Shown: in pieces, positions 1 to 39,183 of the stretch | Position numbering within the stretch: the stretch's first letter is position 1 | How the letters are laid out: each line of letters begins with the position of its first letter | Assembly (NCBI GenBank): GCA_039621445.1 | Contig: CP154954.1 | Span: forward strand, 48,525,847-48,589,846 | Source: Euglena gracilis | Taxonomy: Eukaryota | Reading direction: 5' to 3' | DNA length: 64,000 nt | The notes under the pieces: generated by a model | What the model was told of the DNA's origin: nothing | Databases searched by the model: none | The model's input: the letters and a program-made list of their open reading frames with translations, nothing else | Position numbers and translations under genes: made by a program

Positions 1-732
1 CCGGGCGCCTGCTGGCGGAGGCGAGGGTGGGGGTGGCAAGGGGCGGGACCCGGTGACTGTGCCTGCTGCGGGTCACCCTCAAGGCAGGCGGTGTACACCT
101 TTGGGGGCTCCAGTGGGTTGTCGGGCCCATCTGCTTGCCTGGGCAACACCAGATAGGCCCGAAAGGACTGTGGAACCGGACTGAAACTTCTTTCCAACTT
201 AATCTTGGGGTGCGTGAATGACTGGTCAGGGGCTGAATGCGACGACAGTGCCCAGTCGGTCACAGTTCTCCCGTCGGATGCCCTGCCCGGCAACGGCCCC
301 AGTGAAGGGGTGTAGTACATAGAATGCTGGGTGGAACCGCGAACATTGGTATGGCCCAGCGAACTGCGACTCACGTGCGTCGACTGTGTGCCTCAGCATC
401 AGATCATCCCCCATGTACTGTGTGGATTTGGGACCGAAAGACGCTCAGGACATGCACGCCACAAGCCAAAATCAGTCAGCAAACGGACGGGTTGGCGAGA
501 CAGGCACGAGCTACGCGGTGTTTCCACCAACGTCACCCTTCGCTCCAACAACGCCCTTCACAAAGTCCAAAGTGGCAAATGGGATCGCCGGAGTCATTGG
601 GGTGTGTTCTTTTGGGGCCAAGGAAGGTTTCTCTGGAACATCCATATCCGATCCCATGCATCTCTGATTTTTCCCGACTTCTTTCTACCCATTTGGGTGG
701 ACGACACGGGCAGCCAGCCAGGGTCCGAGGGG

Positions 733-811
733 GACAGGCAGCCCCACCCGCAGCGCAACGCCCACCAGAACCCCCACCCGCAGCAGCACCGAGAGCCGCA
801 CCCGCACCGCA
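733..811 (+). CDS. Exon A of repeat unit 1 (79 nt)
   Basis: Preceded by CCG+N5 (725-732) and followed by N3+CGG (812-817). Reads (g) aca ggc agc ccc...acc gca. Confidence 0.75.
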
Positions 812-9800: not shown

Positions 9801-12800
9801 GAGGCTGGCCGCGGGGCCAGCGGACGCCAGGGTCCGACCCCCACAGGCTCAGCGTCGCCCACCACGAGCGCCACGGGGACGGACAGCCAGACGGAGAGTG
9901 GCAGCGAGAGCGGCACAGCCTCCGCCACCCGCAGCGTGACCCTGGCAGCGACCAGCAGCGGGACGCCGACGGTGACGGGTAGCGCCACAGTCTCCCCGAG
10001 CCGCAGTGAGACGCGCACAGCGAGCGTCACGGAGGCCGGGCGCCTGCTGGCGGAGGCGAGGGTGGGGGTGGCAAGGGGCGGGACCCGGTGACTGTGCCTG
10101 CTGCGGGTCACCCTCAAGGCAGGCGGTGTACACCTTTGGGGGCTCCAGTGGGTTGTCGGGCCCATCTGCTTGCCTGGGCAGCACCAGATAGGCCCGAAAG
10201 GACTGTGGAACCGGACTGAAACTTCTTTCCAACTTAATCTTGGGGTGCGTGAATGACTGGTCAGGGGCTGAATGCGACGACAGTGCCCAGCCGGTCACAG
10301 TTCTCCCGTCGGATGCCCTGCCCGGCAACGGCCCCAGTGAAGGGGTGTAGTACATAGAATGCTGGGTGGAACCGCGAACATTGGTATGGCCCAGCGAACT
10401 GCGACTCACGTGCGTCGACTGTGTGCCTCAGCCTCAGAAGATCATCCCCATGCACTGTGTGGATTTGGGACCGAAAGACGCTCAGGACATACACGCCACA
10501 AGCCAAAATCAGTCAGCAAACGGACGGGTTGGCGAGACAGGCACGAGCTACGCGGTGTTTCCACCAACGTCACCCTTCGCTCCGACAACGCCCTTCACAA
10601 AGTCCAAAGTGGCAAATGGGATCGCCGGAGTCATTGGGGTGTGTTCTTTTGGGGCCAAGGAAGGTTTCTCTGGAACATCCATATCCGATCCCATGCATCT
10701 CTGATTTTTCCCGACTTCTTTCTACCCATTTGGGTGGACGACACGGGCAGCCAGCCAGGGTCCGAGGGGGACAGGCAGCCCCACCCGCAGCGCAACGCCC
10801 ACCAGAACCCCCACCCGCAGCACCGAGAGCCGCACCCGCACCGCAGCCCGGCCTCCGCCGGCCCTGGGGGCGCCCGTCCTCCACTGCCGGAGATACCAGG
10901 GGTGGAACTCCACCGGGTTAGGGGAGGGAGGGGGGGGGCAGGTAGACAGTCGGCAAGGAGCGGCGTTGGGGCTGGGGGGCCTCCTGGGACTGGTTAGGCG
11001 GGGATGGGGGCTTTTGTGCTGGGCACGGGGGCTGGGACCCTTCTGCTGGCTGGGAGGCTGGCCGCGGGGCCAGCGGACGCCAGGGTCCGACCCCCACAGG
11101 CTCAGCGTCGCCCACCACGAGCGCCACGGGGACGGACAGCCAGACGGAGAGTGGCAGCGAGAGCGGCACAGCCTCCGCCACCCGCAGCGTGACCCTGGCA
11201 GCGACCAGCAGCGGGACGCCGACGGTGACGGGTAGCGCCACAGTCTCCCCGAGCCGCAGTGAGACGCGCACAGCGAGCGTCACGGAGGCCGGGCGCCTGC
11301 TGGCGGAGGCGAGGGTGGGGGTGGCAAGGGGCGGGACCCGGTGACTGTGCCTGCTGCGGGTCACCCTCAAGGCAGGCGGTGTACACCTTTGGGGGCTCCA
11401 GTGGGTTGTCGGGCCCATCTGCTTGCCTGGGCAGCACCAGATAGGCCCGAAAGGACTGTGGAACCGGACTGAAACTTCTTTCCAACTTCTTGGGGTGCGT
11501 GAATGACTGGTCAGGGGCTGAATGCGACGACAGTGCCCAGCCGGTCACAGTTCTCCCGTCGGATGCCCTGCCCGGCAACGGCCCCAGTGAAGGGGTGTAG
11601 TACATAGAATGCTGGGTGGAACCGCGAACATTGGTATGGCCCAGCGAACTGCGACTCACGTGCGTCGACTGTGTGCCTCAGCCTCAGAAGATCATCCCCC
11701 ATGTACTGTGTGGATTTGGGACCGAAAGACGCTCAGGACATGCACGCCACAAGCCAAAATCAGTGACCGGTTGGCGAGACAGGCACGAGCTACGCGGTGT
11801 TTCCACCAACGTCACCCTTCGCTCCAACAACGCCCTTCACAAAGTCCAAAGTGGCAAATGGGATCGCCGGAGTCATTGGGGTGTGTTCTTTTGGGGCCAA
11901 GGAAGGTTTCTCTGGAACATCCATATCCGATCCCATGCATCTCTGATTTTTCCCGACTTCTTTCTACCCATTTGGGTGGACGACACGGGCAGCCAGCCAG
12001 GGTCCGAGGGGGACAGGCAGCCCCACCCGCAGCGCAACGCCCACCAGAACCCCCAGGGCCTCCGCCGGCCCTGGGGGGCGCCTGTCCTCCACTGCCGGAG
12101 ATACCAGGGGTGGAACTCCACCGGGTTAGGGGAGGGAGGGGGGGGGGGCAGGTAGACAGTCGGCAAGGAGCGGCGTTGGGGCTGGGGGGCCTCCTGGGAC
12201 TGGTTAGGCGGGGATGGGGGCTTTTGTGCTGGGCACGGGGGCTGGGACCCTTCTGCTGGCTGGGAGGCTGGCCGCGGGGCCAGCGGACGCCAGGGTCCGA
12301 CCCCCACAGGCTCAGCGTCGCCCACCACGAGCGCCACGGGGACGGACAGCCAGACGGAGAGTGGCAGCGAGAGCGGCACAGCCTCCGCCACCCGCAGCGT
12401 GACCCTGGCAGCGACCAGCAGCGGGACGCCGACGGTGACGGGTAGCGCCACAGTCTCCCCGAGCCGCAGTGAGACGCGCACAGCGAGCGTCACGGAGGCC
12501 GGGCGCCTGCTGGCGGAGGCGAGGGTGGGGGTGGCAAGGGGCGGGACCCGGTGACTGTGCCTGCTGCGGGTCACCCTCAAGGCAGGCGGTGTACACCTTT
12601 GGGGGCTCCAGTGGGTTGTCGGGCCCATCTGCTTGCCTGGGCAGCACCAGATAGGCCCGAAAGGACTGTGGAACCGGACTGAAACTTCTTTCCAACTTAA
12701 TCTTGGGGTGCGTGAATGACTGGTCAGGGGCTGAATGCGACGACAGTGCCCAGCCGGTCACAGTTCTCCCGTCGGATGCCCTGCCCGGCAACGGCCCCAG

Positions 12801-13468
12801 TGAAGGGGTGTAGTACATAGAATGCTGGGTGGAACCGCGAACATTGGTATGGCCCAGCGAACTGCGACTCACGTGCGTCGACTGTGTGCCTCAGCCTCAG
12901 AAGATCATCCCCATGCACTGTGTGGATTTGGGACCGAAAGACGCTCAGGACATGCACGCCACAAGCCAAAATCAGTGACCGGTTGGCGAGACAGGCACGA
13001 GCTACGCGGTGTTTCCACCAACGTCACCCTTCGCTCCAACAACGCCCTTCACAAAGTCCAAAGTGGCAAATGGGATCGCCGGAGTCATTGGGGTGTGTTC
13101 TTTTGGGGCCAAGGAAGGTTTCTCTGGAACATCCATATCCGATCCCATGCATCTCTGATTTTTCCCGACTTCTTTCTACCCATTTGGGTGGACGACACGG
13201 GCAGCCAGCCAGGGTCCGAGGGGGACAGGCAGCCCCACCCGCAGCGCAACGCCCACCAGAACCCCCACCCGCAGCAGCACCGAGAGCCGCACCCGCACCG
13301 CAGCCCGGCCTCCGCCGGCCCTGGGGGGCGCCTGTCCTCCACTGCCAGAGATACCAGGGGTGGAACTAGGGGGGGGGGGGGGGGGGGGGGCAGGTAGACA
13401 GTCGGCAAGGAGCGGCGTTGGGGCTGGGGGGCCTCCTGGGACCGGTTAGGCGGGGATGGGATGGGGGG

Positions 13469-13502
<34 letters not shown>

Positions 13503-16500
13503 TTTTTTTTTTTTTTTTTTTTTTCTTTTTTGTTTTTGTTTTTTTTTTTTTTTTTTTCTTTTTTTTTTTTTCCTTTTTTTTTTTTTTTTTTTTGTTTTCT
13601 TTTGTGCTGGGCACGGGGGCTGGGACCCTTCTGCTGGCTGGGAGGCTGGCCGCGGGGCCAGCGGACGCCAGGGTCCGACCCCCACAGGCTCAGCGTCGCC
13701 CACCACGAGCGCCACGGGGACGGACAGCCAGACGGAGAGTGGCAGCGAGAGCGGCACAGCCTCCGCCACCCGCAGCGTGACCCTGGCAGCGACCAGCAGC
13801 GGGACGCCGACGGTGACGGGTAGCGCCACAGTCTCCCCGAGCCGCAGTGAGACGCGCACAGCGAGCGTCACGGAGGCCGGGCGCCTGCTGGCGGAGGCGA
13901 GGGTGGGGGGGGGGTGGCAAGGGGCGGGACCCGGTGACTGTGCCTGCTGCGGGTCACCCTCAAGGCAGGCGGTGTACACCTTTGGGGGCTCCAGTGGGTT
14001 GTCGGGCCCATCTGCTTGCCTGGGCAGCACCAGATAGGCCCGAAAGGACTGTGGAACCGGACTGAAACTTCTTTCCAACTTAATCTTGGGGTGCGTGAAT
14101 GACTGGTCAGGGGCTGAATGCGACGACAGTGCCCAACCGGTCACAGTTCTCCCGTCGGATGCCCTGCCCGGCAACGGCCCCAGTGAAGGGGTGTAGTCCA
14201 TAGAATGCTGGGTGGAACCGCGAACATTGGTATGGCCCAGCGAACTGCGACTCACGTGCGTCGACTGTGTGCCTCAGCCTCAGAAGATCATCCCCATGTA
14301 CTGTGTGGATTTGGGACCGAAAGACGCTCAGGACATGCACGCCACAAGCCAAAATCAGTGACGGTTGGCGAGACAGGCACGAGCTACGCGGTGTTTCCAC
14401 CAACGTCACCCTTCGCTCCAACAACGCCCTTCACAAAGTCCAAAGTGGCAAATGGGATCGCCGGAGTCATTGGGGTGTGTTCTTTTGGGGCCAAGGAAGG
14501 TTTCTCTGGAACATCCATATCCGATCCCATGCATCTCTGATTTTTCCCGACTTCTTTCTACCCATTTGGGTGGACGACACGGGCAGCCAGCCAGGGTCCG
14601 AGGGGGACAGGCAGCCCCACCCGCAGCGCAACGCCCACCAGAACCCCCACCCGCAGCAGCACCGAGAGCCGCACCCGCACCGCAGCCCGGCCTCCGCCGG
14701 CCCTGGGGGGCGCCTGTCCTCCACTGCCGGAGATACCAGGGGTGGAACTCCACCGGGTTAGGGGAGGGAGGGGGGGGGGCAGGTAGACAGTCGGCAAGGA
14801 GCGGCGTTGGGGCTGGGGGGCCTCCTGGGACTGGTTAGGCGGGGATGGGGGCTTTTGTGCTGGGCACGGGGGCTGGGACCCTTCTGCTGGCTGGGAGGCT
14901 GGCCGCGGGGCCAGCGGACGCCAGGGTCCGACCCCCACAGGCTCAGCGTCGCCCACCACGAGCGCCACGGGGACGGACAGCCAGACGGAGAGTGGCAGCG
15001 AGAGCGGCACAGCCTCCGCCACCCGCAGCGTGACCCTGGCAGCGACCAGCAGCGGGACGCCGACGGTGACGGGTAGCGCCACAGTCTCCCCGAGCCGCAG
15101 TGAGACGCGCACAGCGAGCGTCACGGAGGCCGGGCGCCTGCTGGCGGAGGCGAGGGTGGGGGTGGCAAGGGGCGGGACCCGGTGACTGTGCCTGCTGCGG
15201 GTCACCCTCAAGGCAGGCGGTGTACACCTTTGGGGGCTCCAGTGGGTTGTCGGGCCCATCTGCTTGCCTGGGCAGCACCAGATAGGCCCGAAAGGACTGT
15301 GGAACCGGACTGAAACTTCTTTCCAACTTCATCTTGGGGTGCGTGAATGACTGGTCAGGGGCTGAATGCGACGACAGTGCCCAACCGGTCACAGTTCTCC
15401 CGTCGGATGCCCTGCCCGGCAACGGCCCCAGTGAAGGGGTGTAGTCCATAGAATGCTGGGTGGAACCGCGAACATTGGTATGGCCCAGCGAACTGCGACT
15501 CACGTGCGTCGACTGTGTGCCTCAGCCTCAGAAGGTCATCCCCCATGTACTGTGTGGATTTGGGACCGAAAGACGCTCAGGACATGCACGCCACAAGCCA
15601 AAATCAGTGACCGGTTGGCGAGACAGGCACGAGCTACGCGGTGTTTCCACCAACGTCACCCTTCGCTCCAACAACGCCCTTCACAAAGTCCAAAGTGGCA
15701 AATGGGATCGCCGGAGTCATTGGGGTGTGTTCTTTTGGGGCCAAGGAAGGTTTCTCTGGAACATCCATATCCGATCCCATGCATCTCTGATTTTTCCCGA
15801 CTTCTTTCTACCCATTTGGGTGGACGACACGGGCAGCCAGCCAGGGTCCGAGGGGGACAGGCAGCCCCACCCGCAGCGCAACGCCCACCAGAACCCCCAC
15901 CCGCAGCAGCACCGAGAGCCGCACCCGCACCGCAGCCCGGCCTCCGCCGGCCCTGGGGGGCGCCTGTCCTCCACTGCCGGAGATACCAGGGGTGGAACTC
16001 CACCGGGTTAGGGGAGGGAGGGGGGGGGGCAGGTAGACAGTCGGCAAGGAGCGGCGTTGGGGCTGGGGGGCCTCCTGGGACCGGTTAGGCGGGGATGGGG
16101 GCTTTTGTGCTGGGCACGGGGGCTGGGACCCTTCTGCTGGCTAGGAGGCCGCGGGGCCAGCGGACGCCAGGGTCCGACCCCCACAGGCTCAGCGTCGCCC
16201 ACCACGAGCGCCACGGGGACGGACAGCCAGACGGAGAGTGGCAGCGAGAGCGGCACAGCCTCCGCCACCCGCAGCGTGACCCTGGCAGCGACCAGCAGCG
16301 GGACGCCGACGGTGACGGGTAGCGCCACAGTCTCCTCGAGCCGCAGTGAGACGCGCACAGCGAGCGTCACGGAGGCCGGGCGCCTGCTGGCGGAGGCGAG
16401 GGTGGGGGTGGCAAGGGGCGGGACCCGGTGACTGTGCCTGCTGCGGGTCACCCTCAAGGCAGGCGGTGTACACCTTTGGGGGCTCCAGTCGACGCAATTG

Positions 16501-19500
16501 CAATTGCAATTCTATTCTATTGCAAGGCTGTGTTCGTAGCAACATGGCTTTGGTCAAAATATGTGTTTCCAAAAAAACGCAGACTCTGACCTGAGTCCGT
16601 GTTTCGAAACGCTGAGTCTGTTTCTTCGTTTTGAAACGCAGACTCAGGTCAGAGTGCGTTTGAGACACAGTTCTTGACATAGAGATTGTTTCTTTCAAAA
16701 TGGAAGAAAAAAGCATCCCGGAAAAAAAGAGACAAAAGGCTGGTCGACATTAACGGATTTCAGACTGAAACTTACAATGTCGCAAAACGGAACAAAAAGG
16801 CATTCAAAAAAAAGGAAACAAAAGGTCGGTCGACTTCCAAGACATCGGAATCCGTTTATGTCAGTCGATTTCCATTCAGGCCCCCTTTTATTTCAGTCGA
16901 TTTCCATTCAGGCGCCCGTTGACGGGCCAAAAGCCCCTTTTATGACCATATTTCTGTCCAGGCGGTTCGGTCGAATGAATATCAAGACAGGCGTCGGGCC
17001 CAGACAAAATAGGTTTTATAAAAATCGACCGACACTGACAGATTCAGCAGGGGTGCCGGGCGGCTCGGTTCGCTCGCTCGCGCCCGGCGCCCCTGCTGAA
17101 TCTGTTAGTGTCGGTCGATTTTTGTGTTAAAACCTATTTTCTGGGCCCGACGCCTGTCTTGAAATTCTACTGACATTAACGGATTTCAGGCCGAAATTGT
17201 TTATGTCAGTCGATTTCCATTCAGGCGCCCGTTTATGTCGCTCGATTTCCATTCAGGCGCCCGGTTATGTCAGTCGATTTCCATTCCATTAAAATATGTT
17301 GCTGGTCAGATTGGGAATTTTTATTGACTTTTTGGACATTTTGGATTTCCCTTTTTTTCGACATTTTTGATCCTATGGGGTTCTGGAGGCGTCATGGACC
17401 AGACAAAAACCAAATTTTGCGGTCAGGTGATCACAGCTGGCGGAACTTTGGATGGAACTTAAGATTATCTGAAACTTCAGAAAAAGCATTCGGCAAATTT
17501 GGGCCAATTCATTTGTCATCGCTGGTCGTCTGAAAGATAAGCTTTCGGGTGAGGGGTGATTTGGCAATGTTAAAACCCATTCTGGGCTCGATGCCTGTAT
17601 TGCAATTCTATTGGGCTCTGGGCGGTAGACTTGGGGGGGGTAGTGGGTGGTCGGCCGACTAGTCGGCCGACCACCCAACTGGTCGGCCGACTAGGCCTGG
17701 TCGGCAGCTAGCAGGGATTGTCAAAAAGCGATTTAAATCAGGTAATTTTGGACACCCAATTTAAATCCCTCACGAATTTTCGACAAACGTCGAAAAATGT
17801 CGATTATTATCCGCCAGAGCTCGCGATTTTGAATTAGGATCTTACCAGACGGTGGTGGGGCGAACCGAATCCACCGACCAGTGGCGCAGCCTTGGTCGAC
17901 CACCGACCAGTGGCGCAGCAACGCTTCTGGGGGCAGCAGTGTGCCGCGGCTCGCCAACAGAAACTGCTGAACAACCTTGTGGGAGGCGACAAGCTGAAGT
18001 TCCAATGTCAAGCGAAGCCTCATGCCATGGCACGGGCGTCAGTGATGCCGTCCGCTGGCACAAGGACCCTCATCCCCACGAGGGAATTCCAGGCCCTGGT
18101 TCAGTGGTCATTGGGTGCCACGGTCGTGACGCCCACAGAGGGGTCACCCGGCTGCCCCAGGTGCCACAACCCGCTGGATGTAAGAGGACACCACCACGTC
18201 TGTTGCCAGCTGGCCAATTAGGGGGGGGTTACTCATTTCAAGGGAAAATGTCTTTATTTGGGTGTTTTAGGGGGTTCGCGACTGTAAAGGACGGGGTCCA
18301 GGTGGCCAATTGGGGGGGGGGGTAGGGGTAACCCCCCCCCCCTAATTGCCCCCCCCCCAATTGGCCAGAAGGGGGTCCGGATCTGGCCTGGGGGGGGGTA
18401 GTGGGGGTCGACCATGGTCGACCCACGGTCGCCTCGGTCGCCCTCGGTCGCTCTCGGTCGGGGGGGGGGGGGGGGAGTGGGGGGGGACGACCGAGGCGAC
18501 CCTGGGGGTCGACCGAGGGCGACCATGGTCGACCCCCACCCCACGACAGGAAACCCCCCCCTTTTGAAGGGCGACCATGGTCGACCCCCACCCCACGACG
18601 GGAAACCCCCCCTTTTGAAGGGCGACCATGCTCACCCCCACCCCACGACGGGAACCCCCCCCCCTCTGGTCGGGGGGCGACCATGGTCGACCCCCACCCT
18701 TGTGTTGCCCACCCGTTTTGGGGGGCAAATCCCTTTTGTTGCCCAACTGATTTGCGGGGCAAATCCCTTTTGTTGCCCAACTGTTCGAGGGCCCCAAAAT
18801 AACAAAATCCCTTGTGTTACCCAACTGATTTGGGGGGCAAATCCCTTTTGTTGCCCAACTGTTCGAGGGCCCCAAAATAACAAAATCCCTTGTGTTACCC
18901 ACCCGTTTTGGGGGGCAAATCCCTTTTGTTGCCCAACTGTTCGAGTGACCCTGCAACACCCTTTTGTTGCGTATCTGTTCGAGGGCCCCAAAATAACAAA
19001 ATCCCTTGTGTTACCCACCCGTTTTGGGGGGCAAATCCCTTTTGTTGCCCAACTGTTCGAGGGCCCCAAAATAACAAAATCCCTTGTGTTACCCACCCGT
19101 TTTGGGGGGCAAATCCCTTTTGTTGCCCAACTGTTCGAGGGCCCCAAAATAACAAAATCCCTTGTGTTACCCACCCGTTTTGGGGGGCAATCCCTTTTGT
19201 TGCCCAACTGTTCGAGGGCCCCAAAATAACAAAATCCCTTGTGTTACCCACCCGTTTTGGGGGGCAAATCCCTTTTGTTGCCCAACTGATTTGGGGGGCC
19301 AAAACCTTTTGTTGCCCAACTGTTCGAGGGCCCCAAAATAACAAAATCCCTTGTGTTACCCACCCGTTTTGGGGGCAAATCCCTTTTGTTGCCCAACTGA
19401 TTTGGGGGGCAAATCCCTTTTGTTGCCCAACTGTTCGAGGGCCCCAAAATAACAAAATCCCTTGTGTTACCCACCCGTTTTGGGGGGCAAATCCCTTTTG

Positions 19501-22500
19501 TTGCCCAACTGATTTGGGGGGCAAATCCCTTTTGTTGCCCAACTGTTCGAGGGCCCCAAAATAACAAAATCCCTTGTGTTACCCACCCGTTTTGGGGGGC
19601 AAATCCCTTTTGTTGCCCAACTGTTCGAGGGCCCCAAAATAACAAAATCCCTTGTGTTACCCACCCGTTTTGGGGGGCAAATCCCTTTTGTTGCCCAACT
19701 GTTCGAGGGCCCCAAAATAACAAAATCCCTTGTGTTACCCACCCGTTTTGGGGGGCAAATCCCTTTTGTTGCCCAACTGATTTGGGGGGCAAATCCCTTT
19801 TGTTGCTCAACTGTTCGAGGGCCCCAAAATAACACAATCCCTTGTGTTGCCCACCCGTTTTGGGGGGCAAATCCCTTTTGTTGCCCAACTGATTTGGGGG
19901 GCAAATCCCTTTTGTTGCCCAACTGTTCGAGGGCCCCAAAATAACAAAATCCCTTGTGTTACCCACCCGTTTTGGGGGGCAAATCCCTTTTGCTGCCCAA
20001 CTGTTCGAGGGCCCCAAAATAACAAAATCCCTTGTGTTACCCACCCGTTTTGGGGGGCAAATCCCTTTTGTTGCCCAACTGATTTGCGGGGCAAATCCCT
20101 TTTGTTGCCCAACTGTTCGAGGGCCCCAAAATAACAAAATCCCTTGTGTTGCCCACCCGTTTTGGGGGGCAAATCCCTTTTGCTGCCCAACTGTTCGAGG
20201 GCCCCAAAATAACAAAATCCCTTGTGTTACCCACCCGTTTTGGGGGGCAAATCCCTTTTGTTGCCCAACTGTTCGAGGGCCCCAAAATAACAAAATCCCT
20301 TGTGTTACCCACCCGTTTTGGGTGGGCAAATCCCTGGGTTGTCGGGCCCATCTGCTTGCCTGGGCAGCACCAGATAGGCCCGAAAGGACTGTGGAACCGG
20401 ACTGAAACTTCTTTCCAACTTCATCTTGGGGTGCGTGAATGACTGGTCAGGGGCTGAATGCGACGACAGTGCCCAACCGGTCACAGTTCTCCCGTCGGAT
20501 GCCCTGCCCGGCAACGGCCCCAGTGAAGGGGTGTAGTCCATAGAATGCTGGGTGGAACCGCGAACATTGGTATGGCCCAGCGAACTGCGACTCACGTGCG
20601 TCGACTGTGTGCCTCAGCCTCAGAAGGTCATCCCCCATGTACTGTGTGGATTTGGGACCGAAAGACGCTCAGGACATGCACGCCACAAGCCAAAATCAGT
20701 GACCGGTTGGCGAGACAGGCACGAGCTACGCGGTGTTTCCACCAACGTCACCCTTCGCTCCAACAACGCCCTTCACAAAGTCCAAAGTGGCAAATGGGAT
20801 CGCCGGAGTCATTGGGGTGTGTTCTTTTGGGGCCAAGGAAGGTTTCTCTGGAACATCCATATCCGATCCCATGCGTCTCTGATTTTCCCCGACTTCTTTC
20901 TACCCATTTGGGTGGACGACACGGGCAGCCAGCCAGGGTCCGAGGGGGACAGGCAGCCCCACCCGCAGCGCAACGCCCACCAGAACCCCCACCCGCAGCA
21001 GCACCGAGAGCCGCACCCGCACCGCAGCCCGGCCTCCGCCGGCCCTGGGGTGCGCCTGTCCTCCACTGCCGGAGATACCAGGGGTGGAACTCCACCGGGT
21101 TAGGGGAGGGAGGGGGGGGGGCAGGTAGACAGTCGGCAAGGAGCGGCGTTGGGGCTGGGGGGCCTCCTGGGACCGGTTAGGCGGGGATGGGGGCTTTTGT
21201 GCTGGGCACGGGGGCTGGGACCCTTCTGCTGGCTGGGAGGCTGGCCGCGGGGCCAGCGGACGCCAGGGTCCGACCCCCACAGGCTCAGCGTCGCCCACCA
21301 CGAGCGCCACGGGGACGGACAGCCAGACGGAGAGTGGCAGCGAGAGCGGCACAGCCTCCGCCACCCGCAGCGTGACCCTGGCAGCGACCAGCAGTGGGAC
21401 GCCGACGGTGACGGGTAGCGCCACAGTCTCCCCGAGCCGCAGTGAGACACGTACGACGAGCGTCACGGAGGCCGGGCGCCTGCTGGCGGAGGCAAGTTTC
21501 CCTGGACCCAAGCAGTGCTAACATGGCCCCGAATTGGGCAATTTGGGTCGTCAATAAGATTTTTTTTTGCATAATTTGCAGTTTTTTTTTGACGTTGTTC
21601 GATCGTTAGTCAGGACCATCTCCAGCCCGGAAGAGCCAGCAGCCTTTCTCAGCCAGTCCAAGGGGGTCCAGCCTCTGTGCTGTACACCCTTGGCGGGGGT
21701 CATTAAAAAACCACCCTGGGCCGAACTGCGGGTGTGGGCGGCAAGACACGGGACCGAAAGGATTGTGGATGGAAACTGGACCAGACTCCGTTGTTTTTTT
21801 TGCCAACAGGCAAAACGGGGCCTTGAATGGCTGGTCAATGCGACCACAGTGTCCAGGCAGCAGCGGTTCTTCTGACTGACACCATCCCCGGCAAGGGCCC
21901 CGGTGAGGGGGTGGGATACAGGCAGGCTGTGTACAACCGTGAACATCGCTGTGTTCCCAATAATTGCACCCTGCATAGCTACCGGGTTCAATTTTGCACA
22001 ACAGCCTCGAAAGTTAATCCTCCATGGAACGTGTGGATTGAGAACGAAAGATGCACTACCACCTTTCCACTCATATGGGTCGGTGGGCAAATGGCGGTGA
22101 TGGGCAGCCGGCAGCCCCAGCTGGGGTCCGAGGGGGACAGGCAGCCCCACCCGCAGCGCAACGCCCACCAGAACCCCCACCCGCAGCAGCACCGAGAGCC
22201 ACACCCGCACCGCAACCCGGCCTCCGCCGGCCCTGGGGATACCCGGCCCCCACTGCCGGAGATCGTTGGGGATGATGGGCATTTGGTGGGAGGGAGGTGA
22301 GGCCGGTGCAGGCGAGAAGGGGCCGTTGCGGGGCACAGGGGCTGGGAGGCTGGCAGCGGAGCGGGGCTGCTGGCCGCGGACGCCGGGGTCCGACCCCCAC
22401 AGGGTCGGCATCGCCCACCAAGAGTGCAACGGGGACGGGCAGCCAGACGGAGACCGGCAGTGAGAGCGGCACGGGCAGGCGCCTGTTGCGGAAAACGGCC

Positions 22501-25500
22501 TAAAATGTTCTAAGAGGGCTCAAAATGGCCTATGGGGGCCTAAAATGGCCTAAAACAAAACTTTTGAAAAAATTGTGAGTCATAGTTATATGCCTTTGCC
22601 ATCCATGAAGGTTCAAGGGTTGTAGCACATTGCAAGCATAGCAGGCCTTCCGGCGGATGACCCAGCTTAAATCAGCCCCAAATGGCCTGAAGTGGCCGAA
22701 CCCGATCGTCATTGATTCCTCCACTTCAGATTGCAAAGTCTGCATCTGAAGTGGAGTTTGCAAAGTCTGCACTCTTTTGACTTATTTGTATGGCCAGGGT
22801 TCAAAAACCTGTTCCTCAAAATCCACAATCCTTTCTCCTCACCAACAAGAAGTCAGAATCACTTCATCCTCAATGACTGGGAATCTGGTGTGGTGGGGAT
22901 CCCTGGCTCTTGGTTCTGGAAAAAACACCCAGGAAGGGGAGTGCAAATTGTGGGACTTGAATAAGACAGGCCGCAATGTGGAACACAGGCCGCAATTTCG
23001 TTCTTCATTTTCCACGTCTTTCAAGAATTCTTTTCAGGACTTTTCCCGCTGGAATTCAAGAAAACCAGTACCCTCTGGTGAACATTTGAAGTTTCTTCTG
23101 CATTTTGCACTGGTTCCTTGATGTGGAATTGTTTCGTTACAATAAAGAGTTCCGTGTGTTCTGATTGCACTGATCTCTTTGATGCTTTTTTTTAAGTGAT
23201 TCAATTTTTTTTACCGTTGGAGCTGATAAATCCCAGGTTTGGTTCTGGTGCCATTGGATTTCCTTAAAAGGATTCGGTATTGGTTGTTTTGCATCCATCC
23301 CTCTCATTTTCATTAATTTGCCTGACAGAAGGAACAGAAAAATCCTCCCATTCAGAATTCCCCTTGGCGAAAAATGTGATCGCAGAGGGAAGTAAGGTTT
23401 GATTGAAGCTCACCAGGAATTTCAGTGAATTTTTGTACAAATTATCGAAGTTTTCTGCACCAATATCAGTGCACTATTTTCCTTTGCTTTTTGGAGTGTT
23501 TGGAGTAATCTCCAAAAACTCCAGAGTTAAGCTTTAAACAGTTGAAATTTTCAATTTTAAGTGAACGAGGAATTGGTATGACTTCTGTTGAAATGTGTGA
23601 TTCTCTTAGGTGTTCTGTCCAGAAATCCCCCCGGCATTTCAAACGTTTGTCCATTATATTTCGCCCGGCAAAGTTTCTTCCCACAGTAAATGCCTTCGGA
23701 ATTCTCCTCACATAAGTGTGATTGTTGAGGGGACATTTTCAGCTTTGCAGAGATTCCCCAGGGTTTGTTCATTTTACATCATCATCATTATCATCATTTT
23801 TCTTGCCATGCATTCTTTGAATTATCCAAGAACTGTGTGCCACACAATTCAGTTTAGTTCGGAAATTGAGCTGTTCTGGACCCCCACCTGTGGGCGATAA
23901 TGGCCTAAAGGGTAAATGGCCTTAAATGAATTTAATGGGCAAATGTTTTGGGCTGGACCACAGGTGCCTGGGCACGGCCTCCACCACCCGCAGCGTGACC
24001 CTGGCAGCGACCAGCAGCGGGACGCCGACGGTGACGGGTAGCGCCACAGTCTCCCCGAGCCGCAGTGAGACGTGCACGACGAGCGCCACGGAGGCCGGGC
24101 GCCTGCTGGCGGAGGCGAGGGTGGGGGTGGCAAGGGCTGGGGCCCGGTGACTGTGGCCGCTTCGGCTCACCCTCAAGAGGGGGGGTTGGTTTGGGATTCC
24201 TGTCCTTGTCGGTCCCTGAGCCCAACCAGGGCGTATCTTAAAAAATTTTGAACTCACCATCCAGGGGACCAGCCAGCCAGCAGCCTTTTTCCAGCTCCGG
24301 ACCCCCCTCCCCCACATCGAGTTTTTATTTGTTTCCAGCCACCCTAAGGGGGATGGAAAGTAACGGATTCTTTGCTTTCCGGGGGTGCAAAAAAATGGGC
24401 CGAAAATGACCAAAAACACGGGCCTGAACAGGGCTGGCAGGACAACTTTGGGTCAAACAGCAATTGTTTTTGCAAAATTTTCAGTTGTTTGGACATTTTT
24501 GCAGTTTCGATTTTGGGTAAACGGTTTGACCCTCAGTTGGGCTCATCTCCAGCCTGGGACCCCTGGGTTGGGGTGGGGTGTCAGCCGGCAGCCGTTTTCC
24601 TGTATGCCTCTGGGTTCAATTTTGCACAACAGCCTCGAAAGTTAATCCTCCATGGAACGTGTGGATCAGGGCCGAAAGACTATCACCTTTCCACTCATAT
24701 GGGTCGGTGGGCAACTGGCGTATGGGCAGCCGGCAGCCCCAGCTGGGGTCCGAGGGGGACAGGCAGCCCCACCCGCAGCGCAACGCCCACCAGAACCCCC
24801 ACCCGCAGCAGCACCGAGAGCCACACCCGCACCGCAACCCGGCCTCCGCCGGCCCTGGGGATACCCGGCCCCCACCACCAGAGATCGTTGGGGATGATGG
24901 GCATTTGGTGGGAGGGAGGTGAGGCCGGTGCAGGCGAGAAGGGGGCCGTTGCGGGGCACAGGGGCTGGGAGGCTGGCAGCGGAGCGGGGCTGCTGGCCGC
25001 GGACGCCGGGGTCCGACCCCCACAGGGTCGGCATCGCCCACCAAGAGTGCAACGGGGACGGGCAGCCAGACGGAGACCGGCAGTGAGAGCGGCACGGGCA
25101 GGCGCCTGTTGCGGAAAACGGCCTAAAATGTTCTAAGAGGACTCAATATGGCCTATGAGGGCCTAAAATGGCCTAAAACAAAACTTTTGAAAGAAATGGT
25201 GAGTCATAGTTATATGCCTTTGCCATCCATGAAGGTTCAAGGGTTGTAGCACATTGCAAGCATAGCAGGCCTTCCGGTGGATGACCCAGCTTAAATCAGC
25301 CCCAAATGGCCTGAAGTGGCCGAACCCGATCGTCATTGATTCCTCCACTTCAGATTGCAAAGTCCTCTTTTGACTTATTTGTATGGCCAGGGTTCAAAAT
25401 CCCGTTCCTCAAAATCCACAATCCTTTCTCCTCACCAACAAGAAGTCAGAATCACTTCATCCTCAATGAATTCTGGTGTGGTGGGGATCCCTGGCTCTTG

Positions 25501-27007
25501 GTTCTGGAAAAAACACCCAGGAAGGGGAGTGCAAATTGTGGGACTTGAATAAGACCCGCCGCAATGTGGAACACAGGCCGCAATTTCGTTCTTCATTTTC
25601 CACGTCTTTCAAGAATTCTTTTCAGGACTTTTCCCGCTGGAATTCAAGAAAACCAATATCCTCTGGTGAACATTTGAAGTTTCTTCTGCATTTTGCACTG
25701 GTTCCTTGATGTGGAATTGTTTCATTACAATAAAGAGTTCCGTGTGTTCTGATTGTACTGATCTCTTTGATGCTTTTTTTTAAGCGATTCAATTTTTTTT
25801 TTACCGTTGGAGCTGATAAACCCCAGGTTTGGTTCTGGTGCCATTGGATTTCCTTAAAAGGGTTCGGTATTGGTTGTTTTGCATCCATCCCTCTCATTTT
25901 CACTAATTTGCCTGACAGAAGGAACAGAAAAATCCTCCCATTCAGAATTCCCCTTGGCGAAAAATGTGATCGCAGAGGGAAGTAAGGTTTGATTGAAGCT
26001 CACCAGGAATTTCAATGAAGTTTTGTGCAATTTATCGAAGTTTTCTGCACCATATGCATGCACTGCTTTCCATTGCTTTTTGGAGTTTTTGGAGTAATCT
26101 CCAAAATTCCAAAGTTAAGCTTTTAAACATTTGAGTTTTTGAGTTGAAGAGAACGAGGAATTGGTATGACTTCTGTTGAAATGTGTGATTCTCTTAGGTG
26201 TTCTGTCCAGAAATCCCCCCGGCATTTCAAACGTTTGTCCATTATATTTCGCCCGGCAAAGTTTTTTCCCACAGTGAATGCTTCCCTTCAATGAGCCCCT
26301 CACAGAAGTGTTATTGGTGAGGGTGTAACTTCGGCTTTGCAGAGCTTTTCCACTGTTTGCTCATTTCCCATCAACTATTCATCATTTTTCTTGCCGTTCG
26401 TATTTGAATTACCCCAGAACCATGTGCCACACAATTTAATTTGATTCGGAAATTGAGCTGTTCTGGACCCCCACCTGTGGGCGATAATGGCCTAAAGGGT
26501 AAATGGCGTTGAATGAATTTAATGGGCAAATGTTTTGGGCTGGACCACAGGTGCCTGGGCACGGCCTCCACCACCCGCAGCGTGACCCTGGCAGCGACCA
26601 GCAGCGGGACGCCAACGGTGACGGGTAGCGCCACAGTCTCCCCGAGCCGCAGTGAGACGTGCACGACGAGCGCCACGGAGGCCGGGCGCCTGCTGGCGGA
26701 GGCGAGGGTGGGGGTGGCAAGGGCTGGGGCCCGGTGACTGTGGCCGCTTCGGCTCACCCTCAAGAGGGGGGGTTGGTTTGGGATTCCTGTCCTTGTCGGT
26801 CCCTGAGCCCAACCAGGGCGTATCTTAAAAAATTAAGTTACCTCAGGGGGGGTCTCCAGCCAGCCAGCAGCCATTTTCCAGCTCCGGACCCCCCTCCCCA
26901 CCCGTCAACGAGTTTTTATTTATTTATTTCCATCCACCTGAAGGGCGGATGGACAGTGACGGATTTTTCGCTTTGCAAGAATGAGCCAAAAAAAAAAAAA
27001 AAAAAAA

Positions 27008-27049
<42 letters not shown>

Positions 27050-27141
27050 AAAAAAAAAAAAAAAAAAAGAAAAAAACAAAAAAAAAAAAAAAAAAAAAAA
27101 ACAAAAAAAAAAAAAAAAAAAAAAAATGGAAAATAAAAAAA

Positions 27142-27190
<49 letters not shown>

Positions 27191-28360
27191 AAAAAAAAAA
27201 AAAACAAAAAAAATGGGAGAAAATGGGTTGGAACATGGCTGGCGGGACAAATTTGGGGTCAAAACACAAGTTTTTTTTTGCATAATTTGCAGTTTTTGGG
27301 GGCATTTTTGCAGTGTCGATATTTGGCACCCACCCTGAGTCGGGCCCATCACCAGCCCAGGACACCTTCGGGGGGGGGGCAATCAGCCAGCAGCCTTTCT
27401 CCAGCCAGCTCGCTGGCGTGGATGGTGCATCACGGGACCGGAATGGCTGTGGATGGAAACTGGGCCAGACTCAGTATTTTTTTGCCAACTGCCAAAATGG
27501 GGGCCTTGAATCGCTGGTCAATGCGACTGCAGTGCCCAGCCAGCAGCGGTTCCCCTGACTGCCGCCGTCCCTGGCAACGGCCCCGGCGGTGAGGGGGTGG
27601 AATACAGACAACACTGTGCACAACCGTGAAACATCGCTGTGTTCCAAATAATTGCCTCCTGCATGTGCACAACAGCCTCAAAAGTTAATCCCCCATGAAA
27701 CGTGTGGATTAGGGCCGAAAGACTACCACCTTCCCACTCATATGGGTCGGTGGGCAATTGGCGTATGGGCAGCCGGCAGCCCCAGCTGGGGTCCGAGGGG
27801 GACAGGCAGCCCCACCCGCAGCGCAACGCCCACCAGAACCCCCACCCGCAGCAGCACCGAGAGCCACACCCGCACCGCAGCCCGGCCTCCGCCGGCCCTG
27901 GGGATACCCGGCCCCCACCACTGGAGATCGTTGGGGATGATAAGTGTTAGACACCAGGGGTGGAATTTCACCGGGTTACGGGGAGAGGGGGGCAGGTAAA
28001 GGCTGGTTTAGGCGGTGGCCGTCACAGTCGGTAAGGAGCGTTGGGTGGGGGGCACCTGATGGATGGGGGCCACGGGGATGGGGGCTTTCGTGCTGGGCAC
28101 GGGGGCTGGGACCCCTCTGCAGGCTGGGAGGCTGGCCGCGGGGCCTGCGGACGCCAGGGTCCGACCCCCACAGGCTCAGCGTCGCCCACCACGAGCGCCA
28201 CGGGGACGGACAGCCAGACGGAGAGTGGCAGCGAGAGCGGCACAGCCTCCGCCACCCGCAGCGTGACCCTGGCAGCGACCAGCAGCGGGACGCCGACGGT
28301 GACGGGTAGCGCCACAGTCTCCCCGAGCCGCAGTGAGACGCGCACAGCGAGCGTCACGGA
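733..28360 (+). CDS. Multi-exon Ser/Thr-rich (mucin/surface-glycoprotein-like) repeat protein, 5'-partial; each unit splices to 270 nt = 90 aa (TGSPTRSATPTRTPTRSSTESRTRTA-TGSASPTTSATGTDSQTESGSESGTASATRSVTLAATSSGTPTVTGSATVSPSRSETRTASVTE)
   Basis: GC3-rich codons. Between main and diverged copies of exon B, 7 of 10 changed codons are synonymous in this frame. Indels inside exons are -3, -3 and -12 nt, whereas intron indels are arbitrary. Non-canonical splice geometry joins A-B-A in frame. Function is inferred from composition only. Confidence 0.8.
812..1064 (+). other. Non-conventional intron A-B (253 nt), repeated in each unit
   Basis: gcc CGG cctccgccggccc ... gggccagcgga...ggt CCG accccc. 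The ends are complementary and removal gives gca|aca in frame. Confidence 0.7.
1065..1252 (+). CDS. Exon B of repeat unit 1 (188 nt here, 191 nt in most units)
   Basis: Open Ser/Thr-rich frame aca ggc tca...acg ga; strongly conserved in the diverged units while its flanks diverge. Confidence 0.8.
1253..1985 (+). other. Non-conventional intron B-A (733 nt), repeated in each unit
   Basis: ggc CGG gcgcctgctggc ... gccagccagggt CCG agggg. The ends pair and removal gives ga|g aca (E-T) in frame. Confidence 0.7.
16982..17162. repeat. Long near-perfect palindrome (~80-bp arms, ~20-nt loop)
   Basis: tcaagacaggcgtcgggcccaga...ggggtgccgggcg versus cgcccggcgcccc...tctgggcccgacgcctgtcttga. Flanked by direct repeats tgtcagtcgatttccattcagg. 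Confidence 0.95.
17892..18215 (+). pseudogene. Fragment of a CRE/SLACS-like (restriction-like endonuclease) non-LTR retrotransposon ORF, post-RT zinc-knuckle region
   Basis: ...PHAMARASVMPS..TLIPTREFQALVQWSLG...CPRCHNPLDVRGHHHVCC resembles the CxxC..LD..G.H..CC region that precedes the REL domain. Recognised by eye. Confidence 0.65.
18210..18368. mobile_element. Small MITE-like element
   Basis: Inverted ends ctggccaatt(a)gggggg / ccccccaattggccag; truncates the retro fragment. Confidence 0.6.
18405..18700. repeat. Cluster of cgaccatggtcg palindrome repeats
   Basis: About five copies of cgaccatggtcgacccc; two carry a ~58-bp direct repeat. Confidence 0.75.
18700..20334. repeat. Minisatellite of ~78-bp units with interspersed ~34-bp subunits
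   Basis: gggcaaatcccttttgttgcccaactgttcgagggccccaaaataacaaaatcccttgtgttacccacccgttttggg repeated. Related single copies at ~40800, ~52675-52745 and ~53371. Confidence 0.97.
22476..23970. mobile_element. TIR DNA transposon in exon B, predicted to act as a non-conventional intron (22473-23975)
   Basis: Ends caggcgcctgt / acaggtgcctg; 8-bp TSD ggcacggg (22468-22475) / ggcacggc (23971-23978). Sister units have a single ggcacagc. Confidence 0.9.
25099..26557. mobile_element. Second copy of the exon-B transposon-intron (intron 25096-26562)
   Basis: Same ends, same TSD (25091-25098 / 26558-26565) and same site; the interior is homologous but diverged. Confidence 0.9.
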
Positions 28361-29309
28361 GGCCGGGTGCCTGCTGGCGGAGGCGAGGGTGGGGGTGGCA
28401 AGGGGCGGGACCCGGTGACTGTACCCGTTGCGGCTCACCCGCAAGGGGAGGAGGGGGTGCGTTTGGGATTCCCATCCCTGTTGCTTCCTGGGCACAACTG
28501 CTGACCTAGGGAGAAGACACTGGCCCGAAGGGATTGTGGATGTAAACTGAACCATCTGTCAATTTAGTGGACTGCAGTGATCATTTTTGCTTTTTTTTTG
28601 CACAATATGTTGCTTTGCTTCAACTTTGCATTGCTTTTACAACTCTTAGGTTTTATCAATGAATCACCAATCTTTTTTTCTTGACATATCAGGAATGTCT
28701 GTTTGTTGTGACTTTAATCACATGTCTGCTTTTTTTTAGACACATAGTTTATGTTATCCTGTGTTTTTTGATCGGTCCATTTGATCGGAAGCAGAATCTT
28801 TGTTGTGTTGCTTTGTCCAGTGGGCGCAGCATACAGCTGAGTGGTTTGTACATGGATGGACCATCCAGGATCCTGTCAGGTTTTGTATTTTCTGGGCCTT
28901 GAGAACGACGTGGAACTCCCCCATCGTTAATGCCTTCGATGGGCGCCGCCTCCTTCCCCGCCGCCAGCCGGGTCCCGCCAAAGACGGCCCCCCAGCCCTT
29001 GTCTCCCGCCATGGCTTTCCTGCTTGCCCCGGTGGGTCAGTCCTGTCCCCAGCCCTTAGCCCCGCACCAGAGTTCGGGCCCGGCAGCGTGTCTGTCCTCC
29101 TTGTCTCCGCGGCTGGGGTTTGGGGCGACCGATGCCGGGGGGGAGGTGGTGGGGGGGCAGCAACAACCGCCTCCCCGCCAGCCCCAAGGGCGGCCAAGAG
29201 GGGCGGGGACGAGGGAGGGGAGGGGGGGGACGGGTCCGGGGTCCGGAGGTGGACGGGGGCCACGGGGTGACCGGGAAGCGATGCCCCGTCGCCCGCCCCG
29301 CCCGGCGCG

Positions 29310-30486: not shown

Positions 30487-32309
30487 GTGTCTACCTCCCC
30501 CCCCCCCCGCGCAGCACCCACATTTTTTGATCTGGCTCTGGTGCCGGGATTGGCGTTGTTTTCATGTCGGTGTGGCTTGCCACAACTACGGCAGTGACGT
30601 TTTTCTCCTGTTTTTCCCCCTTAATATTAACACCATTTGATGTGGCGGTGGATCCAGGGAGAAGTTCCACCCTTGGGCAACAGAGCGGTATTCAGGGCCT
30701 GTGATGCGACGGGCGGGACGCATCGCAAAGATCCACTTGCCCTCAACCTCCGCTCCTCACAGGTCGCCGGGGGAAGGTGATCCGAGCACGCGCCCCACGC
30801 CGCATCTCCAAGACTCAGACCATGGTGATGAACATTTTGTGGGTGTGCCGCGTGTGAGGCATATGTGGATGGAGGTTGACTTGCCATGCACAGATGTACC
30901 TGCTGGGCAGTGCAAGAAGCTGATGGGAGCGAACGTTTCCGCAAACTCCAACCTTTCTTGAGGAGGAATTTCAACACCAGCAGATGGTTGATATCCAGTG
31001 CCCCCTCCATACAAGCACTGTGTCGCTGGCCGATCCCCCTCCCTGGGTGGGTGACTGGGTTGTGTGTTGTGTTTTTTTTTCCTTCACAGTGACTAACTGG
31101 TTTTTGGAAATCCACCAGCATGACGAAGGCACCGGAATTTTTCACGTGTGTGGTCAATTTTCCCTTGGGTCCCAGACTGGTCACACGGGGGGGGGGGGTA
31201 TTGACTGACGGGTTTCGCTAGAAAATGACTGGCCAGTTTTGGGAAGAGTGGAAGTGATCTCCCTCTTCCCCGGGGGTCATAAGAAATGTATGGTCTCCTC
31301 CTTCCTTTGCACCCTGCTCCCCTGTCGCACCTGTCGCAGGGCGTCTCACTCATTTGCCAGCTTGTTGCGGCCACCTGCCTCTGGGTGCATCTCAGCCCCT
31401 GGCTGGCAGGTGTGCCGCCCCTCGTTGTGAGACTTTGTGACGTGTGAGAGGGACCCCTCCCAGATAACGACGGGTCGTCGTCAGCTCTTTGCGTTGGTCA
31501 GAAATCCATGTGGGGGGGGAGAGTTTTGGTTCAATTGGCGTCGTCACAGAGGCCTCATTGTTAATAAGGGAGGAGGTCGTCACACATGACGGATGACAGA
31601 CAGCCTCTCTGAGAATATTAATATTTAAAATTGTTGATGAGGATGTGCAGACTCTCATTGGGTCTACTCCTCTCCTAGGCAGTGCCAGGCAGTGGTCATT
31701 CACTCCTGTATTCTGCTTCTGTGTGAACCTGAGTGTACAGAGAAATTTGCTTCTGCATTTCGCCTGCAGATTCCTGGGGTCGTTATATCGCTTAAAGTAT
31801 TGCTTTTCAAAAAACCATATCTTCTTCCATCTTCAATCTGAATTGACTTTTTGTCCCGACCAGGGTTAATTTTTTGTGCAGACCGGCTATGATTTGGTGT
31901 GAGCCTGCCGCTGCCTCCGTTCCCTTCGCAGGGGACGATCTATCGGCGTTCCTGGAGTGGAATTTCTCGTGAGATGCCTCGGTGTGCCCCTGTAGGTCTG
32001 AGCTTGTGGGCTTCCGCAGCCGTCAACTAGGTTTTCATTTGCAGGGACGGGCCGTGGGGTTTCCTGATGGCGGAAAGGCTTAAGCCCTGCAAGGTAGGCC
32101 TTCGGCAGGACCTGCTGTTCCCTGCTCTGCACAGGCCCCACCACGCACCACCCATTCGGGGGACGCATGCGTCGTGCGGGAGGAACGGTATTGCCTCGTG
32201 CGGGGGACCGGCCAGGGCGGACCGCCGCACGACCAACATTGGAGGCAGGCTTCTTTTTAAGTCAGAAGACCCCCCCCCCACTCACCACACAGCACAGCAC
32301 AGCTGAGCC

Positions 32310-32371
32310 AGAAGCGAAGTTAGCGCCGGCCATAAACAGACAAGAAGCCTTAGTGCAACTAAGGGGGGGGG
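32310..32371. repeat. ~60-bp dispersed repeat (second copy at ~36259-36322)
   Basis: agaagcgaagttagcgccggccataaacagacMagaagcctKagtgcaactaaggggggggg in both places. Confidence 0.85.
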
Positions 32372-32985
32372 GTGGGTGGGTGGGTCTGGGCCGGAGGCAC
32401 CGGGTATACCTTTCCAGTGCGAAGCGCCGAAATTTTTTGAAAATTGCCTTTAACGGGCCCGATTTGGGGGGGGTCCCCGCCCCCCCCCCCGGGGGGACCC
32501 CTGATGAGTGGTCCCTAGGGCAATAATGATGAGTGGTCCCGCGCCACCCTGGGTGGGTGGGGGGGACCCCCCCTCCCCCCCGGGGGTCTTAAAAAGAAGC
32601 CTGATTGGAGGGGACTGCGGTGAACAGTGCGACCCGGCAAGATTTGACACGACAAGGTGGTTACGTTGAGTCCTTTTTTCATGATTGTGCTGCTGTTTCT
32701 TGATGCTTTGATATGCCTTATTGCTCTGGCATGGGAGGAAGTGCTTTCAGAGCCCACATGTTTCAAAGTGGGCATCCCAAGGGGGTATCCCAAGGGCCTC
32801 ATCGAACTTGAATCCTCCTGTGTACCAAATTTTGGAGAACACAAAAAAACATGCAAACCAGAAGGGCTTTGAATCTATTTGAGCCCGAAACGTTTTTCTC
32901 GAAACCTTCTTCTTTTGGGATTTTCGCTTGAGGTGACCGCCATTGGGGAAGGTCGTTCGCAGGGGCTCCACAATCATTTGGAATT

Positions 32986-38500: not shown

Positions 38501-39183
38501 GGCCAAGGTGTTTTCGCTGACCAACCTGGACCGCTACGTCAACCCCCAATCAGGCGCCATCCACTTGCTTTGCTCCACGGGCAGACAACTGGAAGTTGCA
38601 CACTACGCGTTTTTGGACCAATTTCACATTAGCAGTAGTTGCATGATGGGGACTCCACCAGGTGAACCAACCATATTGCACCACATTTTTGTTTGTTGTT
38701 GCATTTTTGGAGCTGATGAATATAGTCAAGCCCTCTCCAGCAGAAAAGGGTGCAGCCGTGGGGAGCTCCTAACGGACTTCACCTGCAACTTGCATTTTTT
38801 TCCTTTTCATTTTTGTTTGCATTTTTTGTGCATTTTTTTGGCATTTTTTTTGCCTTTTTGCATTTTTTTTGCATTCTTTGCATTTTTTGCATTTTCTTCT
38901 ACATTGCATATCTTGATTTGTTGCATGTTCCCCCCCAGACATGGGAAGGGCCTGCCGCTGGGCCTTCGCCAAAGAGCTGGCGGCGGGGCCGTGCACCCAC
39001 TCCCCCCTATTCCCTGACCCGGTCCAGGCAGTGGTGGTCGTCAACGCGGCCAGCGACGCGCTGGACGCGGTACAGGCGGACTACGTCACGGACAGCGTCA
39101 CGCTGTCCCAGTACCCGATGACCCCCTCCATCGCGTGCTCCAAGGTGCTGGACGCGTTTGAGGGGCTGTGGGAGATTTGGTGA
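35556..39183 (+). CDS. EMG1: 18S rRNA pseudouridine N1-methyltransferase EMG1/NEP1; exons 35556-35719, 36055-36079 (tentative), 36350-36546, 37857-38052, 38505-38547, 38960-39183 (849 nt, 282 aa)
   Basis: Family motifs VILEQA.L, RPDLVHQTLLAVFDSPL, IEINPQTRIPRTMKRFQGLMAQLL and LSQYPMTPSIACSKVLDAFEGLW. The last three introns follow N3CAG...CTGN5 exactly and splice in frame. Confidence 0.93.
36858..36992. repeat. Foldback/hairpin element in EMG1 intron
   Basis: ccagctggacaatttattagccgctaggaaaaagccactggctagatcc is an imperfect inverted copy of ggatcaagctagtggcttttttcgagtggctagtaaaatgaccagctgg. Confidence 0.8.

Follow-up and report, generated by a model that had tools for sequence, protein, structure and literature searches.

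In a window of 64,000 nucleotides (nt) of Euglena gracilis DNA (assembly GCA_039621445.1, contig CP154954.1, positions 48,525,847 to 48,589,846, forward strand), a tandem array encoding a Ser/Thr-rich repeat protein harbours an inserted DNA element, here called element A, in the second of its two conserved exon-like blocks (exon B). Element A has terminal inverted repeats (TIRs) that start with CAG and end with CTG, is present in two adjacent units of the array, and is flanked by an 8-bp repeat of the kind left at a transposon target. Our reading, to which we give a probability of about 0.6, is that a CAG...CTG transposon inserted in exon B, was duplicated together with the array unit, and is predicted to be spliced out as a euglenid nonconventional intron by cuts placed 3 nt ahead of CAG and 5 nt beyond CTG (hereafter the 3+5 cut). 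The coordinates of the features are listed in Table 1.

The array units were counted from the spacing of exon-A and exon-B anchors. Exon B is present in seventeen copies in the window, of which fifteen are uninterrupted and two, in adjacent units, are interrupted. The initial annotation had described the fifteen uninterrupted copies as sharing the codons AGC GGC ACA GCC; the number was correct, but the wording is found in thirteen out of the fifteen, one copy (2379) reading AGC AGC ACA and another (unit at 1069) lacking the GGC codon. The reading frame of exon B is open in all seventeen copies, with a length of 2 mod 3, and its length variants are 3- and 12-nt deletions, both in frame. Substitutions at codon positions 1/2/3 amount to 9/4/16, with an excess at the third position. 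Good alignment between the two unit types is confined to block A, block B and the roughly 60 nt past the latter. A C-rich tract and a CAG acceptor lie just before exon B, and a GT follows it. As it is conserved between unit types, carries indels in frame and shows the third-position excess, exon B looks, from its sequence, like a coding exon.

Exon B of the filled units differs from the majority type at 16 out of 215 positions. The filled units belong to a diverged unit type, which makes their sites paralogues, and not alleles, of the empty ones. Filled and empty sites do occur side by side in the array, as was initially noted, but they cannot be read as alleles of one locus. Two array units contain homopolymer runs in their spacers, of about 134 T (13470-13603) and about 226 A (26988-27213). 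The array is also broken between two units by an insertion of about 4.5 kb (16430-20950), which includes tandem repeats of 78, 112 and 190 bp at 18516-20335.

Element A is, with high probability, an inserted transposon. The TIRs are 11 bp long (CAGGCGCCTGT at the left end, ACAGGTGCCTG at the right end) and match at ten out of eleven positions, with the lone mismatch forming a G.U pair at the RNA level. In the flanking repeat, seven out of eight positions agree, and a second copy of the element is present in the next unit, in agreement with the initial description of an insert with inverted termini and an 8-bp target-type repeat. The borders of the insertion coincide exactly with the site defined by the fifteen paralogous empty copies. 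The G+C content of element A is 42%, versus about 63% in the host sequence, and AATGGCC motifs were found only near both ends of the element, clustered subterminally. Element A possesses no open reading frame (ORF) longer than 123 amino acids, and its ORFs gave no match in Pfam. A metagenome scan with the left end of element A returned 0 matches. Three metagenome matches to the right end were rejected as chance, having only a 21-mer in common with it and a bacterial appearance.

Applied to 22473-23975, the 3+5 cut takes out the element together with 8 nt and regenerates the frame, as had been claimed from the sequence at the outset. In both filled units the product is an open exon B of 215 nt, which is the length of thirteen out of the fifteen empty copies. 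Compared with the empty sites, the sole change in the inferred pre-insertion site is synonymous (ACA to ACG). The four features of the published nonconventional code are all present, namely the CAG and CTG motifs, the 3- and 5-nt spacers, a purine as first base of the downstream exon (G at 23976 and 26563) and pairing beside the motifs. In minimum free energy folds of both full-length predicted introns, +4..+14 are paired with -6..-16, and there is pairing of the exon flanks as well. The predicted introns start with GG and end with AC, and spliceosomal GT/GC-AG sites are absent from their borders. Element A probably behaves as a nonconventional intron; as its host exons are without RNA reads, the splicing of the insert is a prediction.

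The gene EMG1, in the same window, has three introns with the same geometry. After their removal by the 3+5 cut, the EMG1 product aligns without gaps to EMG1 of Euglena longa (P0007; for the species behind the accession prefix see bioRxiv 10.1101/573709), with 190 out of 217 residues identical, so that the initial assignment of these three introns is confirmed. A GT-AG reading of EMG1 intron 1 (36542-37839) would add four residues lacking in the E. longa protein. A further EMG1 intron (about 35700-36352) lies upstream, between the exon of a Lys/Pro/Ala-rich N-terminus (about 35557-35699) and the MVILEQ exon. This intron could not be fitted to the 3+5 rule: a CTG is present at 36342-36344, whereas none of the borders that keep the E. 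longa length has a CAG at +4..+6. One reading of it begins with GTG at 35697. EMG1 intron 1 contains a 136-bp near-palindrome (36858-36993) of two 67-nt arms, 85% complementary and 2 nt apart, which may be a nested foldback or an insert similar to a MITE (miniature inverted-repeat transposable element). In EMG1 intron 3 (38548-38563) the 3-nt spacer is followed by CAGGCGCC, the first eight bases of which are those of element A (22476-22483); this likeness could be due to chance.

Two other elements with CAG...CTG termini, B and C, were found in the window outside the array, and each is flanked by a perfect 8-bp duplication. The complementarity of the termini ends at CAG/CTG in all three elements and does not reach the flank. 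Element C also possesses 33-bp tandem repeats close to both ends, and its ORFs gave no match in Pfam. The whole window was scanned for CAG...CTG pairs with TIRs of at least 9/11 and 8-nt flank identity of at least 7/8. Five matches were obtained, three of them combinations of the two element A copies and the other two being elements B and C. Forty dinucleotide shuffles, scanned with the same thresholds, gave a mean of 0.4 matches per shuffle, and with a strict threshold (TIR of at least 10/11, flanks 8/8) 0 matches were found in the 40 shuffles. Among 133 CAG...CTG pairs outside the array with TIRs of at least 10/12, flanks identical at 8/8 were detected only in B and C, and in none of 24 offset controls. 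Offset controls of the scan itself gave 10 matches at +2 and 5 at +3; the 8 of these inside 1-28415 are all self-matches of the array, and the others are single 7/8 pairs.

Because the duplications of B and C are perfect and the shuffles give no such match, CAG...CTG transposons with 8-bp duplications are real in this genome, where they exist as several families. The cancelling of an 8-bp duplication by 3 + 5 nt is sound arithmetic, backed by elements B and C and by one published case. The general proposal of the initial annotation, that the splice offsets correspond to an 8-bp target-site duplication, gains support from the perfect duplications of these two elements. Any CAG...CTG element with such a duplication would meet the splicing code when placed in an exon, provided that a purine occupies the sixth position of the duplicated target.

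The presence of the insertion, as first reported, is supported by DNA sequencing. Contigs of run X1, which may be the source of the assembly itself, span both junctions (22227-22517 and 23858-24013) at a depth of about 137, equal to the unit-specific depth of the flanks, and contain variants of both element A copies. Another X1 contig (depth 71) joins 22555 to 23946 via eight other letters, and its sequence identifies it as an internally deleted relative of element A elsewhere in the genome. An alignment of the two element A copies shows 86 base differences and, in addition, 50 gap columns (94% identity), while the flanks of the filled units (from exon A through the short intron and exon B to about 120 nt past it) have only about 5 differences in 650. 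Since both filled units have identical flanks, mismatched repeat base included, one insertion followed by duplication is indicated, and the best reading of the compared sequences is a single insertion, then duplication of the unit, then uneven homogenisation. The insertion is not a very recent event; with one insertion preceding a unit duplication and copies 94% identical, the initial description of an intron gain caught in the act was overstated.

Element A could instead be an ordinary transposon that disrupts two units of a silent or decaying array and is retained in the RNA, the match to the splicing code being a by-product of its CAG...CTG ends. We consider this rather unlikely, although several observations agree with it or in other ways count against element A being a transposon-derived intron. 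Raw RNA runs X21 and X24 gave a depth of 0 on exon A, exon B and element A, in samples of 12.9 million records (about 5% of the run) and 8.3 million records (about 6%), respectively; the reads on the surveyed stretch were three and one, all at 24214-24450. Run X17, entered as 'RNA?', yielded a 164-nt piece in element A (22561-22724, depth 2.7) and the high-copy repeat at 24269-24345, and the exons were uncovered. The exon-B peptide found no relative among 1.84 billion representative proteins, where only two unrelated low-complexity bacterial matches were obtained, and a Pfam search with exon B gave no match. Expression of the array may be absent or limited to certain conditions. Within the array, the filled units occupy the degenerate 3' end, next to the long poly(A) and other insertions, and a retained insert would bring a stop eight codons in.

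Any CAG...CTG element that has an 8-bp duplication will in part fit the code automatically, and the fit is therefore not independent proof of splicing. Also on this side of the balance, the flanking repeat of element A, taken alone, reads equally well as a perfect 7-bp repeat with an extra G in the element, and no transposase was found by Pfam among the ORFs of element A. The 64-kb window contains no copies of element A beyond the two, and a full second copy with its own flanks was not seen there. The 8-nt flanks of EMG1 introns 1 to 3 are identical at 3, 4 and 3 out of 8 positions, with no clear signal of a duplication; such low identity is expected if the intronic spacer bases drift, yet it lends no support.

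Nonetheless, simple disruption does not account well for exon B being open in both filled units, 215 nt long and with one synonymous difference, though the elements within them differ by 6%. The cis features present in element A suffice for the splicing of synthetic introns (PMC12501133), and EMG1, a gene of this window, has spliced nonconventional introns that share the geometry and measure 412-1,310 nt.

Repair of a double-strand break with filler DNA, or the reinsertion of an excised intron, could also have produced the insert, the 8-nt repeat then being a footprint of repair. Break repair was the explanation offered by Milanowski et al. 2016 for the 8-nt repeats of a young gapC intron (PMC4770533), and the lack of a transposase in the element ORFs would agree with it. 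However, CAG...CTG inverted termini together with an 8-bp repeat, perfect in two cases, recur in three unrelated inserts within 64 kb, which is the mark of one insertion enzyme and not of random filler. Intron reinsertion would bring the spacers of the donor site and leave the new target unduplicated. Both routes are thus judged improbable. An assembly artefact or chimeric join is hardly credible, with two copies that are 6% apart and X1 contigs that cross both junctions at flank depth with the variants of both copies.

If element A is a transposon-derived nonconventional intron, the following course can be proposed from its sequence. A non-autonomous TIR DNA transposon with CAG...CTG ends and an 8-bp duplication would have inserted once in exon B of a diverged unit of the Ser/Thr-rich repeat gene, and duplication of the filled unit would then have produced the adjacent pair. 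Once transcribed into pre-mRNA, the inverted termini would pair, as they do in the predicted fold, and place CAG (+4..+6) opposite CTG (-8..-6). The euglenid nonconventional system would then make the 3+5 cut, a rule shown in the literature and on the three EMG1 introns. Since 3 + 5 equals the length of the duplication, the cut should erase the element along with one of the repeat copies, so that the original codons are regained, as is predicted for element A.

It is conceivable, and we propose it tentatively, that a single kind of CAG...CTG transposon with an 8-bp duplication gave rise to most nonconventional introns of euglenids, and that the 3- and 5-nt offsets exist to cancel that duplication. 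If such a common origin were true, insertions in exons would be erased from the mRNA without a scar, which would explain their free spread, the 'slidable' nature of most of these introns and the 8-nt repeats in young ones. Removal of one 8-bp duplication by the 3+5 cut predicts that the junctions of young introns slide by at most 5 nt one way and at most 3 nt the other, and the 8-nt flank identity is predicted to decay with the age of the intron. The window supplies three candidate source elements with CAG/CTG ends and 8-bp duplications, one of them in a conserved exon beside fifteen empty copies.

Other repeats are also present in the window. A 946-bp segment (58121-59066) has 42-nt inverted repeats, 86% complementary and beginning with CCGGCGCTTCGCGCC, and represents another family of TIR elements; no clear flanking duplication was found within 14 nt of it. 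A 163-bp tandem repeat occurs in four blocks (41180-42006, 42832-43256, 46062-46713 and 48105-48476), interspersed with microsatellite-like arrays of AAAATGGCCG (43789-43930 and 45904-45971). The latter arrays are similar to the subterminal motif of element A and were considered as its relatives, but they were rejected as part of other repeats. The CCAGCCAGCCAGCAGCC-type segment at 24214-24295 has an X1 word depth of about 54,000, versus about 137 in its neighbours, and is the sole part of the surveyed stretch that bears RNA reads. It is therefore a very high-copy repeat.

Table 1. Features of the tandem array, of elements A, B and C, and of nonconventional introns in the 64,000-nt window (predicted introns are marked as such).
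Feature	Position	Strand	Length	Details
Tandem array	1..28415	+		period ~1,250 bp; 17 units in window; extends past window start
Array unit content				exon-like blocks A and B, both conserved, which code for a peptide rich in Ser, Thr and Pro
Exon B, filled unit 1, part 5' of insert	22403..22472	+		
Left 8-bp target-type repeat, unit 1	22468..22475		8 bp	GGCACGGG
Element A, copy 1	22476..23970		1,495 bp	42% G+C
Element A, copy 1, TIRs	22476-22486 and 23960-23970			
Right 8-bp repeat, unit 1	23971..23978		8 bp	GGCACGGC
Exon B, filled unit 1, part 3' of insert	23976..24120	+		GT donor at 24121
Element A, copy 2 (next unit)	25099-26557		1,459 bp	repeats 25091-25098 and 26558-26565, identical to copy 1 flanks
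Predicted nonconventional intron, unit 1	22473..23975	+	1,503 nt	spacer GGG (22473-75), CAG (22476-78), CTG (23968-70), spacer GGCAC (23971-75)
Predicted nonconventional intron, unit 2	25096..26562	+		contains element A copy 2; same spacers and motif positions
Element B	32246..32603		358 bp	TIR 16/16 CAGGCTTCTTTTTAAG, starts CAGGC; perfect 8-bp duplication ATTGGAGG at 32238-32245 and 32604-32611
EMG1 nonconventional intron 1	36547..37856	+		gga CAG ... CTG gcccc; next exon g
EMG1 nonconventional intron 2	38053..38504	+		gcc CAG ... CTG tggcc; next exon a
EMG1 nonconventional intron 3	38548..38959	+		aat CAG ... CTG ccgct; next exon g
Element C	50397..52253		1,857 bp	TIR 15/16 CAGACCTCCATTTAGT, starts CAGAC; perfect 8-bp duplication GTCGACCC at 50389-50396 and 52254-52261

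The nonconventional code of Euglena comprises CAG with a spacer of 3 nt in front of it, CTG with a spacer of 5 nt behind it, a purine starting the next exon, and pairing beside the motifs, and fully synthetic introns with only these features are spliced in E. gracilis (PMC12501133). The insert has in common with euglenid nonconventional introns (PMC12501133, PMC3935182, PMC4770533) the CAG at +4..+6, the CTG at -8..-6, the spacers, the purine, the paired ends, the lack of GT-AG and a length within their range. Unlike most of those described, it shows a clear transposon anatomy (TIR and 8-bp repeat) and has paralogous empty sites, and its removal is predicted. The origin and removal of nonconventional introns are stated as open (PMC6221363, PMC12501133). 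The proposal of a MITE-like origin dates from 2013 (PMC3935182) and has been taken up again since (PMC6221363, PMC11282704, PMC12501133, PMC12621601). Repeats resembling target-site duplications have been noted for these introns (PMC11282704), and junction repeats were reported in 84.4% of E. agilis introns (PMC12501133). The recently gained intron 4 of gapC in E. agilis ACOI 323 has eight-nucleotide direct repeats, which were interpreted as break repair (PMC4770533). That intron is a strain polymorphism, whereas here the empty sites are paralogous, an 11-bp TIR is present and two more elements with 8-bp duplications lie nearby. The text passages covered by the literature search contained no statement that equates the 3+5 offsets with an 8-bp duplication. 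Similarly, no named source element, no link to hAT transposons and no filled and empty exon site with a TIR was found there for nonconventional introns.

Transposons of the hAT superfamily have 8-bp duplications, short TIRs often starting with CAG, subterminal short repeats and internally deleted non-autonomous copies. Element A resembles them, but has C as its fifth terminal base versus G in the hAT consensus. The 8-bp duplication is seen at 7/8 in A and 8/8 in B and C. No transposase was detected with Pfam in the ORFs of A and C, so that the link to hAT or P, the two superfamilies initially named for their 8-bp duplications, is one of resemblance. Similar to elements A, B and C, Merlin of E. 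gracilis has TIRs and 8-bp target duplications (PMC8101967). However, Merlin carries a DDE_Tnp_IS1595 gene and its TIRs begin with GG, whereas A, B and C begin with CAG; an assignment to Merlin therefore fails on the required 5'-GG and was ruled out (PMC8101967).

Introners and other transposon-derived introns (PMC11282704; for the maize Ds intron also PMC3935182) likewise arise when a non-autonomous transposon inserted in an exon becomes an intron, with the target duplication aiding its exact removal. Introners create or co-opt spliceosomal GT/GC-AG sites and have duplications of 3-5 bp (PMC11282704), whereas element A would be removed by the non-spliceosomal CAG/CTG system and has a duplication that would be cancelled by the fixed 3+5 offsets.

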